A DNA stretch of 64,000 nt from NCBI GenBank assembly GCA_963711945.1, contig CAVQGB010000006.1, positions 12,128 to 76,127 on the forward strand, written 5' to 3'. The translations under genes and the position numbers were made by a program. The notes below the pieces were generated by a model, which was not told the DNA's origin, made no database searches, and worked only from the letters and a program-made list of their open reading frames with translations. This document shows, piece by piece, positions 4,870 to 64,000 of the stretch. The number at the start of each line of letters is the position of its first letter. The stretch's first letter is position 1. The DNA is from an uncultured Verrucomicrobiae bacterium (GTDB taxonomy: Bacteria; Verrucomicrobiota; Verrucomicrobiia; Limisphaerales; UBA11358).

Positions 4870-4978
4870 GGAGCGCGGGCGGCTCGTCCGCGTTGGAGTT
4901 TGAGCTTCGGCTTGTTCATTGTTTAAGGACAGGCTAAAGCCTGAACTCCAACACTCGCGGGCAAGCCGCCCGCGCTAC
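4870..4978. repeat. Nested REP-like palindromic elements
   Basis: Outer arms GGAGCGCGGGCGGCTCGTCCGCG / CGCGGGCAAGCCGCCCGCGCTAC enclose an inner element GTTGGAGTT...CAGGCTAAAGCCTGAACTCCAAC. Confidence 0.75.
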
Positions 4979-5616: not shown

Positions 5617-5755
5617 AAATGGCCCGGCGATGCTACCAAAGAAAGGGCCGGCGGCGAGGTGAAACGAAAACAAAAGTCGAGGACGAGGAGGGTTTCACTT
5701 TTGAAACCGCACCGCCTTGCTACGACACAACAAGCTGCGTAATCTGATATTGAAA

Positions 5756-23148: not shown

Positions 23149-23310
23149 CCGCGTAACGCGCCACCCGCCACCCGTCCTCCGTAGCAAGACTGCGGAGGAT
23201 GGACGAGGCGGTCCAGCAGCCCCCCGGGGCGGGTGTGCTGCCCATCTCCGATCTTGGGATTGAAACAAAATTGACGCACACGGCAAATCCGCCTACGGTC
23301 ACGGCGGGTA

Positions 23311-25367: not shown

Positions 25368-26261
25368 CTACAAATCCAAACCTTCCCCTTCCACCATGCG
25401 GCGCGACGTGGTCTGGACAATCTTGAGAAACGCGTCGAGCAGCGGATTTTTACCGCCCTGCCACAACGCGCCGAATGGGACCAGATCGAATCCTTCGAGG
25501 GGCAGCAGGCGCACCTGCGGATGGAGTTTCATTTTTGGCACGCCAACGGTCACACCGATGCCGTAGCCGTTGGCGACATAGGTCTGCACGAGTTCAACCG
25601 AGCTGACTTCAATTCCGCTGAACCATTCCACTTCGAGCCGGGCCAGACCCGCTTGGAACGCGCGGCTGATGAATTCGTTGCTCGGCACCGTGATGAGCGA
25701 TTCGCCGATGGGATCGCGCTGCCAGAGTTCCTGCGCGGATTTGAGTTTGCTTTTCTTCGGCAGAAGCAGCACGAGCGGCAGCTTGAACAAGGACAGCGAT
25801 TGCACGCCCGAGGGCGGTTTGGAGCCGATCAGGCCGAGGGACACGTCAATTTCCCGCCGCTGAAGCCAGGCGACAATTTCCGGATGATACCCTTCGCGCA
25901 AGGTCACTTTTAGTTTCGGAAACTTCTGCCGCAGTTCCTGCAACATGGCGGGCAGATGCTCGCGCAGCACCGTTTCCGACGCGGCAATGCGCAGGTGCTG
26001 GGAGACGCCGCCGCGGAGTTTTTCGGCCACGGAGTCCAGATCATCAAAAAACGGCTTGATGAAATCGTAAAGTTCCCGGCCGGCCGGCGTCAAAGCGAAC
26101 GGCCTGCGGTGGAACAGCGGCACGCCCAGGAATTCCTCGAGTTGCGCCATCTGGGAGCTGACCGCCGGCTGCTGGATGCCGTAGGGGATGTTGTGGACTG
26201 CCGGCATGATGCCGCCGTGTTTGGCGACGTAATAGAACAGTTCCAGATGGTGGATATTCAT
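25368..26261 (-). CDS. LysR family transcriptional regulator
   Basis: MNIHHLELFYYVAKHG...QPAVSSQMAQLEEFLGVPLFHR HTH plus substrate-binding domain; divergent from the activase gene. Confidence 0.93.
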   Translation of the reverse strand: MNIHHLELFYYVAKHGGIMPAVHNIPYGIQQPAVSSQMAQLEEFLGVPLFHRRPFALTPAGRELYDFIKPFFDDLDSVAEKLRGGVSQHLRIAASETVLREHLPAMLQELRQKFPKLKVTLREGYHPEIVAWLQRREIDVSLGLIGSKPPSGVQSLSLFKLPLVLLLPKKSKLKSAQELWQRDPIGESLITVPSNEFISRAFQAGLARLEVEWFSGIEVSSVELVQTYVANGYGIGVTVGVPKMKLHPQVRLLPLEGFDLVPFGALWQGGKNPLLDAFLKIVQTTSRRMVEGEGLDL

Positions 26262-26560
26262 TGGTTTAAGTGATGTTGCCGCCAGTATTATCAATTAACC
26301 TTTTTCGGGCAAGACGCGTTATAACTGCGCCCGACCGAAGAACGGCCGCAACAAAGTCAAATCTCATGAAACCGGCCGGCCTCGAAAAAATGCCGGCAAT
26401 TCGGAGCGATCGCCGGCGGCCATGCCGGCGGGCAAAAGATCCGCGACGGGGTTGATGACGCGCGGCGCGGTTTCTTCCGGCCTGGTGTTGAATTTTCGGG
26501 CGGATTGCCGGACAATATGAATTGTCTTGGCAAAATTGTAATGAAAACATTCATAATCTT

Positions 26561-29500
26561 ATGAAAACCAATGGACACGGCGGCCAGACCCTTTTTCCAG
26601 AAACGTTGACGACGCCGCGCCGTCTTGCGCCGCGGCGTTTCGTGGGAATTGATGCCGGAGCGGAAACGGTGAAGCTGGTTGAGCTGCTGCGCGACGCGGA
26701 CGGCCTGCGCATCGAACGCACGGAAATCCTGGAGCACGGCAAAAATCCGGGACGGGTCGTGCCGGAAACGTTGGAAGCCTGGGATTGGCCTGATGTCGCC
26801 GGGGCCGCCGTCAGCGGGCGGTTTTCCCCGCAAATCAACCTGCGCCGCATTCCCGCCAAGCAGGCGCAATGGCGCGGCTACCAGTTCCTGTTCGGCAACA
26901 TGCCGGCCACCATCGTCAACATCGGCAGCCACGGCTTCACGGTTTTGGAAGTGCGCGACAGCGGGGCGACGGTCTTTCGCGAAAACAGCCGGTGCTCGCA
27001 AGGCACGGGCAATTTTCTCCGGCAACTCGTCGAGCGATTTTCGCTGTCCGTCGAGGAAGCCAGCGCGCTCTGCGCCGACGTGCCCAATCCCGCGCCGCTG
27101 TCCGGCCGCTGCCCGGTGATTCTCAAGACCGATATGACGCATCTCGCCAACAAGGGGGAGGACCGCGCCCGCATTTTGGCCGGGCTTTTCGATGCCGTCT
27201 GCGAAAACGTGCTGGTGCTCGTCAAACCCGGCGTCAGCCCGCCGCGAGTGCTGCTCACCGGGGGCGTCAGCCGGTCGCCGCGCGTCCGCCGCGTCTTCGG
27301 CGAACTGCTCGCCAGGCAAAACATGAGCCTGATGGCCGCCGATGAAGAAAAAGCGCTCTGCCTCGAAGCGCTCGGTTGCGCGCTGATTGCCGCGGAAACG
27401 CCGGCTGAATATTTCAATGGCCGCCCGGATGGCAATCAGGTTTTGGACTGCGGCAACAGGTTGCCGCTTTCCTCGATGCAACATGTCGCGTCGAACCAAA
27501 GCGCGGACATGTCCGCGCACTCCAAAGTTACCAACGGAAATCTGCCTTCGCTTGAAAATTTATTGCGCCCGCCGCGTGAATTGAAACTGGAGCGTTTGCC
27601 CGCGCTGGCCGAAGCGCTGGCCAAAGTCCGCCGGATGCCGGCGCAGCCGTGGGCCGCCGTCAACGGCGAATTCCGGCGGCTCGTCGTCGGCTTCGACATC
27701 GGCTCCACCGGCTCGAAGCTTGTGGCGATGGACGCGGCCACCCGCGAAACCGTCTGGGACGCCTACGGCCAGACGCTCGGCAACCCCGTCGGCGCCGCGC
27801 AGGAATTGCTCCGCCGGTTCACCGAAAGCCCCGCCGCCAAATATCCGGTCGTCGCGTTTGGCGCGACGGGCAGCGGACGCGAAATCACCGGCTCGCTGCT
27901 GAACTCCTGTTATGGCAAGGACGCGGTTTTCGTCGTCAATGAAATCGTCGCCCACGCCACCGGCGCGCTGCATTACGATTCGCGCGTGGACACGATTTTT
28001 GAAATCGGCGGGCAGGACGCGAAATACATCCGGCTGGCGGATGGGCGCATCATTGACTGCGCGATGAACGAGGCATGCAGCGCCGGCACCGGCTCGTTCA
28101 TCGAGGAGCAGGGCCGCAAATTCACCGGCATCGGCGATGCGCGCCAGCTCGGCCTGGCGGCGATGGCCGCGCCGTGCGGCGTGTCGCTGGGACAACATTG
28201 CTCCGTGTTCATGGCCGAGGTGATTGACGAAGCGGTGTCCGCCGGCGTCGAGCAACCGGCCATCATTTCCGGCCTTTACGATTCCATCATCAAAAATTAC
28301 CTGAACCGTGTGAAGGGCAACCGCTCCGTGGGAAAAGTGATTTTCTGCCAGGGCATGCCGTTCTCGGCGGACGCGCTGGCAACCGCCGTGGCCCGGCAAA
28401 CCGGCAGCCAGGTCATCGTGCCGCCCAATCCCGGCACCGTGGGCGCGATGGGCATCGCGCTGCTCGCGGCGCGGGAACTGGATGTTGCGCGGGGAGCGCA
28501 CGCGCCCTCGCGTGCCCTCGATCGCGCCCTCGCGGTCGGGGGTGACGCGCGCCAACGCGCGTCGTCCACGCGCGCGGAGGCGCGCGCGGGCGCGGTTGAC
28601 GCGGCGTCAACCGCCACAGCCGAGGCGGCCGTGCTCCCTGCACGCGAGGCGCGTGCGCTCCCCATGCCACTGCCGCCTCTAGACCTCTCGCGATTTCTCG
28701 ACGCCAAGATCGAGCAGAAAGACACGTTTGTCTGCGGGTCGAACCGCGGTTGCGGCGGCGCGGGCAATCATTGCCGCATCGAACGGCTCCGCACGCTCGT
28801 CAACAGCCAGCGCTCGAACTTCACCTGGGGCGGCGGCTGTTCCCTGCACGACAAAGGCACGCGAAAGAAGAAGCTTCCCGATCTTGCGCCCGACCCTTTC
28901 CGCGAGCGCGAGGAACTGGTGAAGAAAATTCTGGCCGGCCTTTCGGAATCGTCCTCGTCCTCGTCCTCGTCCTCGAACGACGAAGCAAATCGAGGACGAG
29001 GACGAGAAGGAGGAGGAAATGCCGCCCGACGAACCGTCGCACTGTCTGACGAGTTCGTGCTCAAAGGATTGTTTCCATTCTTCGCGGCGTTTTTCCGCCA
29101 CGCCGGTTTCGATCTGGAAATCCTCACCGGCGCCGGGCCGGACCTTCTCAAACGCGGCATCCAGCTCGCGAACGCGCCGTTCTGCGCGCCGATGCAGCTC
29201 TATCATGGCGTGGCGGAAAAGCTGGTTGCGAGCAAGGCCGGCTGGCTGTTCGTGCCGATGCTGCGGAGCGTTCCCCGCGCGTCAAACCAGCGTTGTTCCG
29301 TGGTGTGCCCGATTGCGCAAGGCAGTCCGAATCTGCTGGCAAGCGTCCTACATCGTGATGGTAGGGACGCGCTGCCGCGCGTCCGAGACGACCAGCAGGT
29401 CGTCCCTACCAACGCTGGGCGATCGCCACAGTTCCTTTCGCCCGTTATGGATTGCGAGGATGGCGGCCTCGAATCAAAGGAATTTCTGGCAAGTTGCGGG

Positions 29501-31468
29501 CGGCTGGCAAAGGGATTAGAGCTGAATGACCGCCAATGGCGCGATGCGTGGCGCGCGGGAGTTGAAACGCAAAAACAGTTTGACGCCGGCTGCCGGGAAA
29601 TTGGCCGGCGCGCGCTGGAATTCTGCCGCGAGCAGGGCATCGTGCCGGTGGTGGTGCTGGGCCGCGCCTACACGATTTACAACAAGGTTCTCAACTCAAA
29701 CGTGCCGGCGATTCTCCGCGAACAGGGCGCCATCGGCATTCCGCTGGATTGTTACCCGCTGCACGCGGACACGCCGGCATTCACAGACATGTATTGGGGT
29801 TATGGCCAGGGCATTCTGCGCGCAGCCCATCAAGTGCGGCGCGCGGCGGGAGTTTATGCGCTTTATTGCAGCAATTATTCCTGCGGGCCGGACAGTTTCA
29901 ATCTGCATTTCGCCGCCTACGTGATGGAAGGCAAACCGTTTGCGATCATCGAAACGGACGGCCATTCCGGCGACGCCGGCACGCGGACGCGCGTGGAGGC
30001 GTTTCTCCATTGCGTCGAGGAAGACCGGGGCGTGGCGCAGGGTTCCAAACCTGCCGTGTCGCCGATTTCCCAATCGGTGGGATGCGGGACATCGTGCGCG
30101 CCGCAGGTTGAGAAACCTGCGACACAAAGCCGCGCCGGAGCCCGGCTGAACAATTTTGAATCCGTGCAATTCAGCGGATTGCAGCTGCATGATTTGCAAA
30201 AGAACAACGGCGCCGCCGAAAAGCTGCTGGTTCCTTACATCGGTCCCGCGTCGGAAACGGTGGCGGCGGTTTTCAACGGACTCGGTTTGGCGGCGGAAGC
30301 CCTGCCGCCGCCGGATGCGGAATCGTTGCGGCTGGGCCGGCGTTACACTTCCGGCAAGGAATGTCTGCCAATGCCGCTCACGCTTGGCTCCCTGCTGCAA
30401 CGGCTGGAACGCGCCAGGGACGGCGAGCACTTCACTTATCTCATGCCCGGCACTGACGGCCCGTGCCGGTTCGGCGTCTATAATCTGCTCAACAACATCG
30501 TTCTCGAACGGCTCGGCTGGCGCGACCGCGTTCGCGTCTGGTCTCCGAAGGATTCCGGCTACTTCGACAACATGCCGCCGGGAACCGAGATGCTGATTTT
30601 CGCGGGCATCGCGGCGAGTGATTTCTTGTATCAGGCGAAACTGGACGTGCGCCCGGTGGAACGCACGCCCGGCCAGGCCGGGGGGATTTTCCAGCGGTAT
30701 CGCAGTGAATTGTTGAAACGGCTCGAATCCGCGGCTCGCGGCAATCTGGCGCTGGGTCCGGCCCTGTGGCAGGCGCTCGGCGGCAATTTGTTTGGCGTGC
30801 GTGAATTGCTGGCGCGAGCCGGCGCGGCATTTGCCGCGATGCGCGGGCCCGGCGAATTGCCGCTCGTCGAACTGGCGGGGGAAATTTACGTGCGGACCGT
30901 TGAATTCAGCAACGATTTCCTGATTGAGAAACTCGAGGCGCGCGGCCTGCGGGTCCATCTGGCGCCGAAAATGGAATGGATTGATTACTGCGGCTATTAT
31001 CAGCGGCAGAACACGGATCGCAGCCGTCTGGCCGGCCAATTCACCGCCCGCGTCCAGCGGCGGATTGAAAACGTCGCGTTCGCAGCCATTGCGCCGCGCC
31101 TGGGCTGGTCGTCGCCGCCGTCCACCGCGGAAATCCTTGCCACTGCCAGCCCGTATGTGAGCGACGCCCTGGCTGGCGAGGCGGTCTTGACCGTGGGCGC
31201 TCCGCTGCTGGAATGGCGTCACCGGCAGATTGACGCACTGGTCAACGTCGGCCCGCTTGAATGCATGCCGACAAAAATTGCCGAGGCTCAATTTCACCAA
31301 ATCGCCGAGCGCGAGGGTTTGTTGAGTCTGACACTTCCGTTGAACGGCGACCCCGTCAGTGAGTCGGCGTTGGACAATTTTGCCTTCGAGGTTCACGCCC
31401 GTTTCCAACGCCGGCAACCTGGCACAAAGCGGGCCGATTGCAGCCTTCAATCCATCCCGGTGAGGTAA
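26561..31468 (+). CDS. Fused acyl-CoA dehydratase-activase protein (two BadF/BadG/BcrA/BcrD ATPase domains plus DUF2229-like/reductase domains; PlsA/Ger-like architecture)
   Basis: GIDAGAETVK, SRCSQGTGNFL, GFDIGSTGSK, EIGGQDAKYI, MNEACSAGTGSFIEEQ, HCSVFM, YSCGPDSF, SGKECLP, GPCRFG, GPLECMP. Confidence 0.88.
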   Translation: MKTNGHGGQTLFPETLTTPRRLAPRRFVGIDAGAETVKLVELLRDADGLRIERTEILEHGKNPGRVVPETLEAWDWPDVAGAAVSGRFSPQINLRRIPAKQAQWRGYQFLFGNMPATIVNIGSHGFTVLEVRDSGATVFRENSRCSQGTGNFLRQLVERFSLSVEEASALCADVPNPAPLSGRCPVILKTDMTHLANKGEDRARILAGLFDAVCENVLVLVKPGVSPPRVLLTGGVSRSPRVRRVFGELLARQNMSLMAADEEKALCLEALGCALIAAETPAEYFNGRPDGNQVLDCGNRLPLSSMQHVASNQSADMSAHSKVTNGNLPSLENLLRPPRELKLERLPALAEALAKVRRMPAQPWAAVNGEFRRLVVGFDIGSTGSKLVAMDAATRETVWDAYGQTLGNPVGAAQELLRRFTESPAAKYPVVAFGATGSGREITGSLLNSCYGKDAVFVVNEIVAHATGALHYDSRVDTIFEIGGQDAKYIRLADGRIIDCAMNEACSAGTGSFIEEQGRKFTGIGDARQLGLAAMAAPCGVSLGQHCSVFMAEVIDEAVSAGVEQPAIISGLYDSIIKNYLNRVKGNRSVGKVIFCQGMPFSADALATAVARQTGSQVIVPPNPGTVGAMGIALLAARELDVARGAHAPSRALDRALAVGGDARQRASSTRAEARAGAVDAASTATAEAAVLPAREARALPMPLPPLDLSRFLDAKIEQKDTFVCGSNRGCGGAGNHCRIERLRTLVNSQRSNFTWGGGCSLHDKGTRKKKLPDLAPDPFREREELVKKILAGLSESSSSSSSSSNDEANRGRGREGGGNAARRTVALSDEFVLKGLFPFFAAFFRHAGFDLEILTGAGPDLLKRGIQLANAPFCAPMQLYHGVAEKLVASKAGWLFVPMLRSVPRASNQRCSVVCPIAQGSPNLLASVLHRDGRDALPRVRDDQQVVPTNAGRSPQFLSPVMDCEDGGLESKEFLASCGRLAKGLELNDRQWRDAWRAGVETQKQFDAGCREIGRRALEFCREQGIVPVVVLGRAYTIYNKVLNSNVPAILREQGAIGIPLDCYPLHADTPAFTDMYWGYGQGILRAAHQVRRAAGVYALYCSNYSCGPDSFNLHFAAYVMEGKPFAIIETDGHSGDAGTRTRVEAFLHCVEEDRGVAQGSKPAVSPISQSVGCGTSCAPQVEKPATQSRAGARLNNFESVQFSGLQLHDLQKNNGAAEKLLVPYIGPASETVAAVFNGLGLAAEALPPPDAESLRLGRRYTSGKECLPMPLTLGSLLQRLERARDGEHFTYLMPGTDGPCRFGVYNLLNNIVLERLGWRDRVRVWSPKDSGYFDNMPPGTEMLIFAGIAASDFLYQAKLDVRPVERTPGQAGGIFQRYRSELLKRLESAARGNLALGPALWQALGGNLFGVRELLARAGAAFAAMRGPGELPLVELAGEIYVRTVEFSNDFLIEKLEARGLRVHLAPKMEWIDYCGYYQRQNTDRSRLAGQFTARVQRRIENVAFAAIAPRLGWSSPPSTAEILATASPYVSDALAGEAVLTVGAPLLEWRHRQIDALVNVGPLECMPTKIAEAQFHQIAEREGLLSLTLPLNGDPVSESALDNFAFEVHARFQRRQPGTKRADCSLQSIPVR
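27441..27526. repeat. REP-like palindromic element (TTTGGA...TCCAAA family), in-frame in activase
   Basis: Terminal inverted repeats TTTGGACTGC/GCACTCCAAA, internal hairpin GCGGCAACAGGTTGCCGC and perfect palindrome GCGCGGACATGTCCGCGC. Confidence 0.85.
28491..28663. repeat. REP-like element (GGGAGCGCACGCG family), in-frame in activase
   Basis: Arms GGGGAGCGCACGCGCCCTCGCGTGC / GCACGCGAGGCGCGTGCGCTCCCC; same family starts at 63947. Confidence 0.88.
28949..29017. repeat. (TCGTCC)n...(GAGGAC)n inverted hexamer element, in-frame in activase
   Basis: TCGTCC x4 then TCGA ... TCGAGGACGAGGACGAG; encodes poly-Ser and RGRGRE. A related half occurs near 5677. Confidence 0.8.
29360..29410. repeat. GTAG-type REP element, in-frame in activase (51 bp)
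   Basis: GGTAGGGACGCGCTGCCGCGCGTCC-GA-GACGACCAGCAGGTCGTCCCTACC. Confidence 0.88.
30032..30125. repeat. REP-like element (GCAGG...AAACCTGC family), in-frame in activase
   Basis: GTGGCGCAGGGTTCCAAACCTGC...CCGATTTCCCAATCGG...GCAGGTTGAGAAACCTGCGACAC. Confidence 0.8.
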
Positions 31469-32539: not shown

Positions 32540-32926
32540 ATGAAATCTAATCCAAATCTCATCCTCGCCTGGCTCTGGATTCTGCTCGGCTTCACCTCCG
32601 GCATGGTGCTGGGCATGTTCTTTCACGGCGAAAACTGGCTGGGCGGCTACGGCAGCTTCAAACGCCGGATGTATCGGCTCGGCCACATTTCCTTCTTCGG
32701 CCTCGGCGCGGTGAATTTGCTGTTCTGCCTGACGGTGCAAAACTTGCCGCTCGCCGGGCCGCTGATTCATTCCGCGTCGCTGGCCTTCATCGTCGGCGCG
32801 ATCACGATGCCGGTTTGCTGCGTGGTGATGGCGCATTTTCCGAAGGCGCACCTGATTTTCGCCGTGCCGGTGGTGAGTCTGATCACCGGCGGAGTTTTAA
32901 CCCTGCTGGTGGTCATCAAATTATGA
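32540..32926 (+). CDS. Small four-TM membrane protein
   Basis: WLGGYGSFKRRMYRLGHISFFGLG; ATGA-coupled to the radical SAM gene. Confidence 0.8.
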   Translation: MKSNPNLILAWLWILLGFTSGMVLGMFFHGENWLGGYGSFKRRMYRLGHISFFGLGAVNLLFCLTVQNLPLAGPLIHSASLAFIVGAITMPVCCVVMAHFPKAHLIFAVPVVSLITGGVLTLLVVIKL

Positions 32927-34398
32927 ATGCAAAAAAACGCATCGGCTTCATCGCCATGAGCGGCGTGCGCGCCCACAACGCCGAACTCACCCAACTCGGC
33001 CTCACGCTGCCCGGCTTTGTGGACCGGAACAAAATCATCGCGTCGCTGCCCAGCCTCGGCCTGCTCACGCTCGCCGGGCTGACGCCGGACCGGTTTGAAA
33101 TCGCCTATCACGAAATCGCCGACCTGAAACAAACCACTGTTCCGGATGATTCTCAAGGTGGGGCGGGCAGTCCCCTGCCCGCCGCTGACACACAAACCCA
33201 AGACGGCGCGCACGGAGTGCCGCGCCCTACCTCATACGCCCTGGAACTGCCGACCGATTTCGACCTCGTCGCCATCAGCACCTTCACCGCGCAATTTTAC
33301 GAGGCGTGCGACGTGGCGGATTTTTACCGGGCGTCCGGAATTCCCGTCGTCATGGGCGGCATCACCGTTTCGTCGTTGCGCGAGCAGGCCAAGGAGCATT
33401 GCACCAGCGTCGTCATTGGCGAGGGCGAATTGCTCTGGCCGGAATTGCTCGCCGATTTCGAGCGCGGCGAGCTGAAGCCGTTTTACACGACCAAGAAGGA
33501 ATTTGATCTGGCCGACGCGCCGATGCCGCGCTTCGATTTGCTCGCGCCGCAAAAATACAACCGCCTCACCGTGCAGACCAGCCGCGGCTGCCCGCACCGC
33601 TGCGAATTCTGCGCCAGTTCCATTTTGCTGACGCCGCGTTACAAGGTGAAGCCGGTGGAAAAAGTCATCGCCGAAATCCGCGAAATCAAAAAAATCTGGC
33701 CCAAGCCGTTCATCGAGTTCGCCGACGACAACAGTTTTGTCCACCGCGAGCATTACAAAAAACTCCTGCGCGAACTGGCGAAGGAAAAACTCCGCTGGTT
33801 CACCGAGGCCGACGTGCGCGTGGCCGAAGACGACGAATTGCTCGGCCTCATGCGCGATTCCGGCTGCCAGCAGGTTCTGATCGGCCTGGAAAGTCCGCGC
33901 CGCACAAGCCTTGACGGCGTCGAGTTGAAATCGAACTGGAAATTGCGCCAGCAGGATTTTTACCGGGAAGCCATCGCGAAAATCCAGTCCTACGGCATCA
34001 CCGTGAACGGCTGTTTCATCCTCGGCCTCGACGGCGACACGCCCGAAGTGTTCGACGACGTGCTGGATTTCGTGCGCGACTCCGGGCTTTACGAAGTGCA
34101 GGTGACGTTCATGACCGCGTTTCCCGGCACGCCGCTTTACGCGCGGCTGAAACGCGAAGGCCGCATCATCCGCGACAACGCCTGGGAACTTTGCACGCTG
34201 TTCGACATCAATTTTCAGCCGAAGAACATGAGCGTCGCCGAATTGCAAGGCGGTTTCCTGAAACTGGTGAAGCAGCTTTATTCCGCCGAAGAAACGCACG
34301 AACGCCGTGCGAAATTCAAGCGCATGTTGAAAACGTCGCCGCACTTTGGCCGCCGCGGCGCGGCAGGAGCAGGCGCTGGCGGCATGAAAACGAATTGA
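32923..34398 (+). CDS. B12-binding-domain radical SAM protein
   Basis: PSLGLLTLAGLT, DLVAIS, PVVMGG, VVIGEGE, TSRGCPHRCEFC (CxxxCxxC), FADDN, IGLES, FILGLDGD, TAFPGTPLY. Confidence 0.93.
   Translation: MNAKKRIGFIAMSGVRAHNAELTQLGLTLPGFVDRNKIIASLPSLGLLTLAGLTPDRFEIAYHEIADLKQTTVPDDSQGGAGSPLPAADTQTQDGAHGVPRPTSYALELPTDFDLVAISTFTAQFYEACDVADFYRASGIPVVMGGITVSSLREQAKEHCTSVVIGEGELLWPELLADFERGELKPFYTTKKEFDLADAPMPRFDLLAPQKYNRLTVQTSRGCPHRCEFCASSILLTPRYKVKPVEKVIAEIREIKKIWPKPFIEFADDNSFVHREHYKKLLRELAKEKLRWFTEADVRVAEDDELLGLMRDSGCQQVLIGLESPRRTSLDGVELKSNWKLRQQDFYREAIAKIQSYGITVNGCFILGLDGDTPEVFDDVLDFVRDSGLYEVQVTFMTAFPGTPLYARLKREGRIIRDNAWELCTLFDINFQPKNMSVAELQGGFLKLVKQLYSAEETHERRAKFKRMLKTSPHFGRRGAAGAGAGGMKTN
33156..33232. 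repeat. GTAG-type REP element, in-frame in the radical SAM gene
   Basis: AGGTGGGGCGGGCAGTCCCCTGCCCGCC ... GGCGCGCACGGAGTGCCGCGCCCTACCT. Confidence 0.85.
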
Positions 34399-50198: not shown

Positions 50199-50465
50199 AT
50201 GAAGAAACATTCAACATTCAACATTCAACGCCGGAAATCCAATGAGCCGCGGGTGGCACAGGCCTCCGGCCTGTGGTTTCGGGCGTCGCGCCCGAAACCG
50301 TTGGCGGGCGAACGACTGTTCCACCCTTGTCCGTCCGCCAGGTGTTTAGCTCTCGCGACAAAATTCGGCGTGACGCCGAATTTAACGGGCGCGACGCCCG
50401 TTCCACCCGCCGCATTGGATGTTGAATGTTCGCTGTTGAATGTTGAATGTTTTCCGTCTGAATGA
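50199..50465 (+). repeat. Heptamer hairpin (50205-50452) with a nested GGTGG REP-like element (50249-50410) inside an 88-aa coupled mini-ORF
   Basis: AACATTCAACATTCAACATTCAAC...GTTGAATGTTCGCTGTTGAATGTTGAATGTT; inner GCGGGTGGCACAGGCCTCCGGCCTGTG...CGGGCGCGACGCCCGTTCCACCCGC. The ORF starts 4 nt after the DUF58 stop and ends in an ATGA overlap with ATG 50462. Confidence 0.82.
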
Positions 50466-63946: not shown

Positions 63947-64000
63947 GGGGAGCGCGCGCGCCTCGCGTGCTGTTTTCCGCGCCATCGCGGAAAACCTCGA
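63947..64000. repeat. Left arm of a GGGAGCGC REP-like element (truncated by the window)
   Basis: GGGGAGCGCGCGCGCCTCGCGTGCTGTTTTCCGCGCCATCGCGGAAAAC; same family as 28491-28663. Confidence 0.75.

Follow-up and report, generated by a model that had tools for sequence, protein, structure and literature searches.

The window analysed here is a stretch of 64,000 nucleotides (nt) from contig CAVQGB010000006.1 (assembly GCA_963711945.1) of an uncultured Verrucomicrobiae bacterium. It contains a long activase-like gene whose coding sequence carries five palindromic elements, E1 to E5, all in frame. All five segments are insertions that belong to multi-copy families and are not conserved as protein, and they lie in poorly conserved linkers or loops of a protein whose conserved residues are intact. 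They are probably selfish insertions that were filtered by selection for reading frame and linker location, and that are tolerated by the host protein rather than serving as functional modules. One of the five, E2, matches the arms that flank a transposase gene nested within the alaS gene of the same genome. This transposase is of the REP-associated tyrosine transposase (RAYT) type, REP denoting repetitive extragenic palindromic sequences. The genome around the window comprises 4.37 Mb in 13 contigs, is approximately 75% complete and has a G+C content of 58%; the lineage is free-living and inhabits soil. The coordinates of the gene, of its elements and of the RAYT-bearing genes discussed below are collected in Table 1.

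Table 1. Activase-like gene, its palindromic elements, and genes carrying a nested RAYT. The first six rows give window positions; the others refer to the loci named. aa, amino acids; ORF, open reading frame; REPIN, REP doublet forming a hairpin.
Feature	Coordinates	Strand	Description
Host gene	26522..31468	+	1648-aa activase-like ORF; two BcrAD_BadFG ATPase domains, Cys-rich segment, DUF2229
E1	27441..27526	+	86 nt; located between ATPase domains 1 and 2; three hairpins with GACATGTC-cored stems, TTGGAGTGCGG...CCGCACTCCAA type
E2	28489..28667	+	about 177 nt, immediately after ATPase domain 2; GGGGAGCGCACGCGCC terminal inverted repeats, four internal hairpins
E3	28949..29017	+	69-nt hairpin, (TCGTCC)n and (GGACGA)n arms; just before DUF2229
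E4	29360..29410	+	51-nt dimer, two GTAG-tagged REP hairpins (REPIN-like); variable DUF2229 loop
E5	30032..30125	+	94 nt, shortened member of 133-nt GTAG-tagged composite family; between DUF2229 region and C-terminal domain
Interrupted alaS, own genome (L106)	G000:C12:23135-27096		interrupted at Pfam tRNA-synt_2c position 263/264; insert of about 670 nt made up of E2 left arm, RAYT gene and E2 right arm
RAYT-bearing alaS, G049	L124:266-4696	-	
RAYT-bearing alaS, G035	L125:831-4322	-	
RAYT-bearing alaS, G045	L126:153-3728	+	
RAYT-bearing alaS, G017	L127		
RAYT-bearing priA, species of the genus	L128:559-3492	-	
RAYT-bearing priA, species of the genus	L129:581-3523	-	
RAYT-bearing priA, species of the genus	L130:1890-4856	+	
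RAYT-bearing priA, own genome	L102:667-2718	-	

Full-length orthologues of the activase-like gene were found in three (G001, G003 and G022) of 31 related genomes. Matches to the orthologues break exactly at residues 296-340, 658-716 and 1171-1203, and in a four-way alignment (72, 73 and 68% identity) all three orthologues have gaps at five places. In the codon alignment, the net inserts corresponding to E1 to E5 amount to 44, 59, 23, 18 and 31 codons (132, 177, 69, 54 and 93 nt), located approximately at positions 27410-27541, 28489-28667, 28949-29017, 29360-29413 and 30029-30121. The alignment to homologues that an earlier note on this DNA had called for thus reveals empty sites in all three full-length orthologues, and each of the five insert lengths is divisible by three. 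In a wider MAFFT alignment with 77 homologues, each 1300 aa or longer and drawn from 80 loci, the columns of E1 to E5 are occupied in at most 2, 6, 2, 7 and 5 sequences. The segments would have been of a different nature had they been single-copy and conserved as protein in distant homologues, an outcome that the note itself had considered. The families have 10 to 52 copies each, and the possibility that the segments are conserved ancestral sequence lost elsewhere was rejected on account of this multi-copy character.

Soil and rhizosphere metagenome contigs, from four sequencing runs, provide closer relatives, with 85-95% nt identity to the window. Contigs bridge E2 from position 28482 to 28674-28691, with 14-31 nt between the two points and a net loss of about 177 nt; one contig bridges E3 from 28921 to 29048, with 57 nt between and a net loss of 69 nt; and contigs bridge E5 from 30027 to 30145/6, with 24-25 nt between and a net loss of 93 nt. 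The joints at E1 are ambiguous. At E4 no bridging metagenome contig was found, and the site shows only a depth spike and loose ends, the copies seen being from elsewhere. An artefact of assembly was rejected in view of the five in-frame inserts and of a 246-nt contig that is identical across E3, although the run that contains it may be the source sample.

The five inverted-repeat elements were reported by the earlier note at these same positions, and the folding analysis bears this out. Long inverted repeats occupy 28484-28506/28648-28670, 28949-28976/28990-29017 and 29359-29383/29387-29411. The predicted RNA folds have energies of -39.1 kcal/mol for E1 (z -5.0), -141.2 kcal/mol for E2 (z -8.5), -46.1 kcal/mol for E3 (z -6.5), -32.5 kcal/mol for E4 (z -5.1) and -52.2 kcal/mol for E5 (z -5.8), and for each element none of 200 shuffled sequences folded as well as the native one. 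E3 encodes the peptide SSSSSSSS..RGRGREGGG. E4 bears GTAG on both units, and the alignment of its 12-copy family shows stem changes on both sides. The consensus of the E5 family is GTAGCGCAG, and the tags of the activase copy are mutated to GTGG and GTGT. E4 and the E5 family can thus be classed as GTAG-type REPs, while the GTAG tag is lacking in E1 (TTGGAGTGCGG), E2 (GGGGAGCGCACGCGCC) and E3. The description of the five as unrelated goes slightly too far, as E4 and E5, although from different families, are both GTAG-type REP hairpin dimers. Terminal inverted repeats (TIRs) are present in E1 and E2. A reading of the junctions, each of which has an alignment ambiguity of a few nt, revealed no direct repeat beside any of the five inserts. 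Classification as DDE-derived miniature transposable elements with inverted repeats (MITEs), which combine TIRs with a target-site duplication, was rejected on the absence of flanking direct repeats.

The host frame is open over 4.9 kb without a stop codon, and together with the insert lengths this upholds the earlier statement that the frame is intact. The protein matches BcrAD_BadFG twice and DUF2229 in Pfam (PF01869, 129.6 bits, cut-off 31.5; PF09989, 109.2 bits, cut-off 29.4), and TIGR00241 in NCBIfam (160.6 bits, cut-off 125.4). With these curated cut-offs exceeded, the predicted protein is an acyl-CoA dehydratase activase-like fusion of BcrAD_BadFG and DUF2229. Relatives in the PDB are limited to ATPase domain 2, residues 388-655. 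All 128 alignment columns that are conserved in at least 90% of the 77 homologues are retained, as are 471 of the 477 conserved in at least 80%, which is among the best retention of the 78 sequences. The gene looks functional because none of the 128 highly conserved columns has been lost. Its closest named relatives belong to metagenome-assembled genomes of Verrucomicrobiia or Verrucomicrobia subdivision 3. The activase orthologues of four loci that are titled Bifidobacteriaceae, Acidobacteriota or Acidoferrum (L019, L086, L020 and L021) nest among Verrucomicrobia in the gene tree, which suggests mislabelled bins or gene transfer.

Linker location was judged by a proxy, the local conservation of the alignment. 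The junctions of E1 to E5 lie at the 11.8th, 9.4th, 4.0th, 2.9th and 3.2nd percentile of local conservation, and they are found at or near Pfam domain borders, with the exception of E4, which occupies a loop of DUF2229. Other lineages have expanded the same linkers, in agreement with the inter-domain location proposed earlier. The homologue at locus L017 has long inserts of its own at the E1, E3 and E4 sites; L022, L086 and L092 have them at the E4 site, and L023, L056 and L032 at the E5 site. REP-like hairpins are found in the inserts of L017 and L023; the others fold no better than shuffled sequences. In L017, the insert at the E1 site carries termini of E1 type, uses the same frame and has its 5' context in common with the window copy. 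The gene tree has the topology (window,(L016,L017)), and the E1 site is empty in L016. From the tree and the empty L016 site it follows that the L017 insert is either an old shared insertion lost by L016 or a parallel event.

The families to which the elements belong were defined in a self-BLAST census that yielded 722 repeat intervals and 19 palindromic families, followed by profile searches (nhmmer, E<1e-3). Genes were called with our own codon-usage caller, which is crude, and copies were considered deep in a gene when at least 30 nt inside a high-scoring ORF. The 19 families account for 565 copies in the genome. High-scoring ORFs cover 64% of the genome and hold 124 of the copies (22%), the other 78% being extragenic; the elements are consequently depleted in genes, yet numerous there. 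Many families occur in frame inside genes, which agrees with the multi-family, coding-compatible elements that the earlier note had proposed. E1 belongs to census family 6 (27 copies, 7 deep in genes), E2 to family 10 (21 copies, 11 deep in genes), E3 to family 9 (52 copies, 4 deep in genes) and E4 to family 28 (12 copies, 4 deep in genes). E5 is a member of family 36 (10 copies), with a modest nhmmer score of 21.7; a blastn-short search finds it as a single copy at E<1e-3, the assignment coming from the profile search alone. Among 40 other genomes of the genus, E1 is present in 27 and E2 in 18, with 0-35 copies each, and such patchy copy numbers are as expected for mobile DNA. All ten sampled host ORFs have Pfam domains, and the inserted peptides of the element families differ in every host.

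The elements are unevenly distributed among their 102 host genes, of which 85 carry one element, 15 carry two, one carries three, and the activase-like gene carries five (scored as six census matches, E2 being split). With three elements in the next most loaded gene, the activase-like gene is the hotspot that it had been taken for. The gene in second place is a 643-aa ORF encoding a MoaE-MoeA fusion (L110, G000:C10:687912-689843), with elements of families 5, 16 and 6.

The events that best account for these observations would be as follows. Five non-autonomous elements of the REP, REPIN or MITE kind, each from its own genome-wide family, would have entered the activase-like gene independently. 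Selection would have spared the insertions that kept the frame, introduced no stop codon and fell in poorly conserved linkers or loops, where they may be neutral. The protein would remain functional with about 175 extra residues, and, as has been shown for Rickettsia palindromic elements (RPEs), the inserts would be transcribed and translated along with the gene, and so retained in both mRNA and protein. Mobilisation may be brought about by RAYTs, for E2 by a transposase of the HUH (histidine-hydrophobic-histidine) Y1 tyrosine type, via single-stranded hairpin DNA. The five independent inserts would then mark permissive linkers, so that nature has tested here what amount of foreign sequence an enzyme of several domains can accept, and at which places.

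Several observations weigh against this account. The E1 repeat makes up 86 nt of the 132-nt net insert, and the other 46 nt are not repeat sequence. The E1-like insert in L017 may be shared by descent. No transposase adjoins E1, E3, E4 or E5, none of these families being found within 1.2-1.5 kb of any of the 10 matches to the transposase domain Y1_Tnp in this approximately 75% complete genome; the cognate transposase that the earlier note had proposed to look for was therefore found for E2 and for none of the others. Some host ORFs appear truncated at elements (UvrD, AcrB, and a split alaS), as given by the crude gene calls. The reading frame of intragenic copies is biased beyond the effect of stop codons in family 8 (P = 1e-4) and nominally in families 6 (E1), 1 and 11 (P = 0.01-0.03), while the bias is not significant in families 10, 14 and 7. 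Hydropathy was examined as a cause of this bias and rejected, as no preference was found (n = 111, Wilcoxon p = 0.61), which leaves the bias unaccounted for by hydropathy. Finally, the activase-like gene is far more crowded than a Poisson model scaled for length predicts (lambda 0.22, P(>=5) = 3.6e-6), the expected number of such genes in the whole genome being 9e-4. Tolerance by itself may be insufficient to account for this, and an insertion bias is possible.

In the case of such a bias, the elements would be aimed at the activase-like gene or at its linker-coding DNA, for example by locally single-stranded or hairpin-prone sequence, a target motif or the replication context, and the hotspot would reflect landing and not only tolerance. 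The crowding speaks for this explanation, and by eye a CGG codon precedes three of the five empty sites. Tolerance restricted to linkers, however, gives the same pattern, as every junction falls within the 12% of the protein that is least conserved. The five junctions show neither an evident common target motif nor an evident target-site duplication, and the insert at the E1 site of L017 may be the same ancestral event. Taken together, insertion bias is an unlikely explanation.

A functional role is less likely still, and we regard it as quite improbable. The peptides would serve as useful linker extensions, or the mRNA hairpins would pace translation or processing. All five RNA folds are very stable and placed at domain boundaries, and some families show a frame bias, which speaks for such a role. 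The inserts are absent, however, from all close orthologues, which consequently work without them; 78% of the copies of the same families are extragenic; and the inserted peptides differ from host to host. The earlier notion that the elements repeatedly remodel protein linkers implies a function, and tolerated selfish insertions fit equally well or better. That the gene is decaying, a pseudogene or a sequence under relaxed constraint gathering junk, might be supposed from its element load, the highest in the genome; it is very improbable in view of a 4.9-kb stop-free frame, five inserts that are all multiples of three, and a retention of highly conserved columns that is complete and among the best of the aligned sequences.

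Selfish insertion into tolerant linkers thus remains the preferred explanation, and for E2 a candidate source of mobility could be identified. One of the 10 Y1_Tnp matches sits between the left and right arms of E2, inside the sole alaS gene of the genome. Two frame changes are present in this alaS, and alanyl-tRNA synthetase (AlaRS) appears as ORFs of 521 and 797 aa. One of the frame changes separates two RAYT halves that match NF047646 (REP-associated tyrosine transposase) at profile positions 4-70 and 74-145, with 42.3 and 41 bits. Both changes may be assembly errors. The C-terminal part of the gene contains a second copy of E2. Positions 6-90 and 86-178 of E2 match the RAYT-flanking arms at G000:C12:26036-26120 and 25465-25556, respectively, and E2 arms flank the RAYT not only at G000:C12:25465-26120, but also in G049, G044 and G035. 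As judged from these matches, the activase E2 is both RAYT arms joined without the transposase and translated in the same frame. This link of E2 to a RAYT nested in alaS offers a testable route to REP mobilisation and transposase persistence, a long-open question.

The nesting of RAYTs in host genes is not confined to this genome. In the alaS genes of G049, G035, G045 and G017 an entire RAYT (NF047646 profile 4-145) is nested in frame, and G049 has two. Those of G049, G035 and G045 are one uninterrupted ORF of 1164-1477 aa that extends from the N terminus to the C terminus of AlaRS; for G017, the stretch examined stops short of the C terminus. Where in alaS the RAYT is inserted varies among species. 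In priA, one site (residues ~250-388) holds an in-frame RAYT of a second lineage, in three species of the genus (G017, G042 and G044) and in the own genome, where the priA ORF has an early stop at 684 aa. A database search of proteins of 655-2086 aa returned 1239 with this RAYT region at E<=1e-10. The best 120 of the 1239 (P0002-P0121) comprise 99 of AlaRS type, 18 of threonyl-tRNA synthetase (ThrRS) type and 3 of MetH type, and are mostly labelled Verrucomicrobia. Some matches are named 'alanyl-tRNA synthetase/REP element-mobilizing transposase RayT' by the Joint Genome Institute (JGI). Over 123 aligned nested copies, conservation of the HUH and Tyr motifs is 95% or higher, and arm-encoded peptides flank the RAYT in each host type examined. 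A limited literature search, which did not extend to supplements, revealed no publication that describes RAYTs within alaS, thrS, metH or priA; in one study, 'unexpectedly long proteins' were discarded as fusions or annotation errors (PMC6006769).

These data lead us to a broader proposal that is tentative, and that we consider possible without calling it probable: coding sequence may be a habitat for REP-type elements and RAYTs in these bacteria. A RAYT with its two arms would make up a single open frame, read through in frame in essential or housekeeping genes, and the indispensability of the host would protect it. E2-like shells without a RAYT would seed linkers, including those of the activase, and coding compatibility would have evolved rather than being a by-product of G+C content. 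If this is true, a nested RAYT would be comparable to an intein that does not splice.

Elsewhere, the window holds additional members of the palindromic families. Relatives of two of the five elements had been reported between genes. An E2-type terminus (ATGGGGAGCGC...) at 63947 does open an element that the end of the window truncates; the site near 5677 has no more than a single E3-type arm, a weak relative. Positions 4891-4953, 23198-23264 and 50251-50408 hold copies of families 1, 0 and 16. These three copies and that at 63947-64000 are extragenic or at ORF ends according to our own gene calls. The neighbour gene at 32815-34398 (527 aa) contains a GTAG REP dimer of census family 8 in frame at 33157-33231, and the frame is that of nine of the ten near-full-length intragenic copies of this family.

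Comparison with known systems places these elements close to REPs described in the same phylum. Intragenic GTAG and CGTC REPs were reported by Di Nocera, De Gregorio and Rocco (2013, BMC Genomics 14:522; PMC3733652), and the number of GTAG REPs was highest in Opitutus terrae. In this species and other bacteria, GTAG palindromes and dimers within known genes encode 20-30 aa, with several families per genome, and double REP insertions occur in some ORFs, such as uvrA. Neutral placement of the inserts in flexible linkers or loops was proposed by the authors. RAYT genes bordered by REPs or by long TIRs are termed 'REPtrons' and 'TIRtrons' in the same source. The elements described here share with those of O. 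terrae the phylum, the GTAG palindromes and dimers within genes, and the linker sites, which for the latter were proposed. They differ in that the activase ORF has five elements of five families, against at most two per ORF mentioned in the available part of PMC3733652, in that E1, E2 and E3 lack the GTAG tag, and in that the RAYT matching E2 lies inside coding sequence.

The earlier note regarded Rickettsia RPEs as the main precedent for coding insertions, which overlooks the intragenic GTAG REPs of O. terrae (PMC3733652). RPEs (Ogata et al. 2000, as cited in PMC10969869 and PMC3733652) comprise several palindromic families that lie in frame in unrelated genes, with the ORF preserved and a preferred frame. 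A 2024 review (PMC10969869) calls in-frame MITE fusions 'not unusual' and gives 44 RPE insertions in R. conorii, compared with 124 intragenic copies here in a crude census. The likeness to RPEs is one of behaviour only, namely in-frame insertion into functional-looking genes with the ORF preserved; by contrast, the elements studied here occur in another phylum, in a lineage that lives free in soil and whose genome has 58% G+C. In-frame colonisation by palindromic repeats is thus extensive in a free-living soil lineage.

In REPIN-RAYT systems, REP doublets are mobilised by a single-copy RAYT (PMC8049555, PMC8266576). E4 and E5 resemble these as inverted REP doublets forming one long hairpin, E2 arms flank a RAYT, and the genome encodes Y1/HUH transposases. 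REPINs and RAYTs of the classical type are normally extragenic, whereas 22% of the copies in this genome are intragenic and the RAYT is in frame within host genes. In-frame palindromic repeats in genes are therefore of a kind already known, from the GTAG REPs of O. terrae in this phylum (PMC3733652) and from the RPEs. The activase-like gene is an unusually crowded case; it adds a load of elements from five families within a single ORF, and the relation of E2 to a RAYT.

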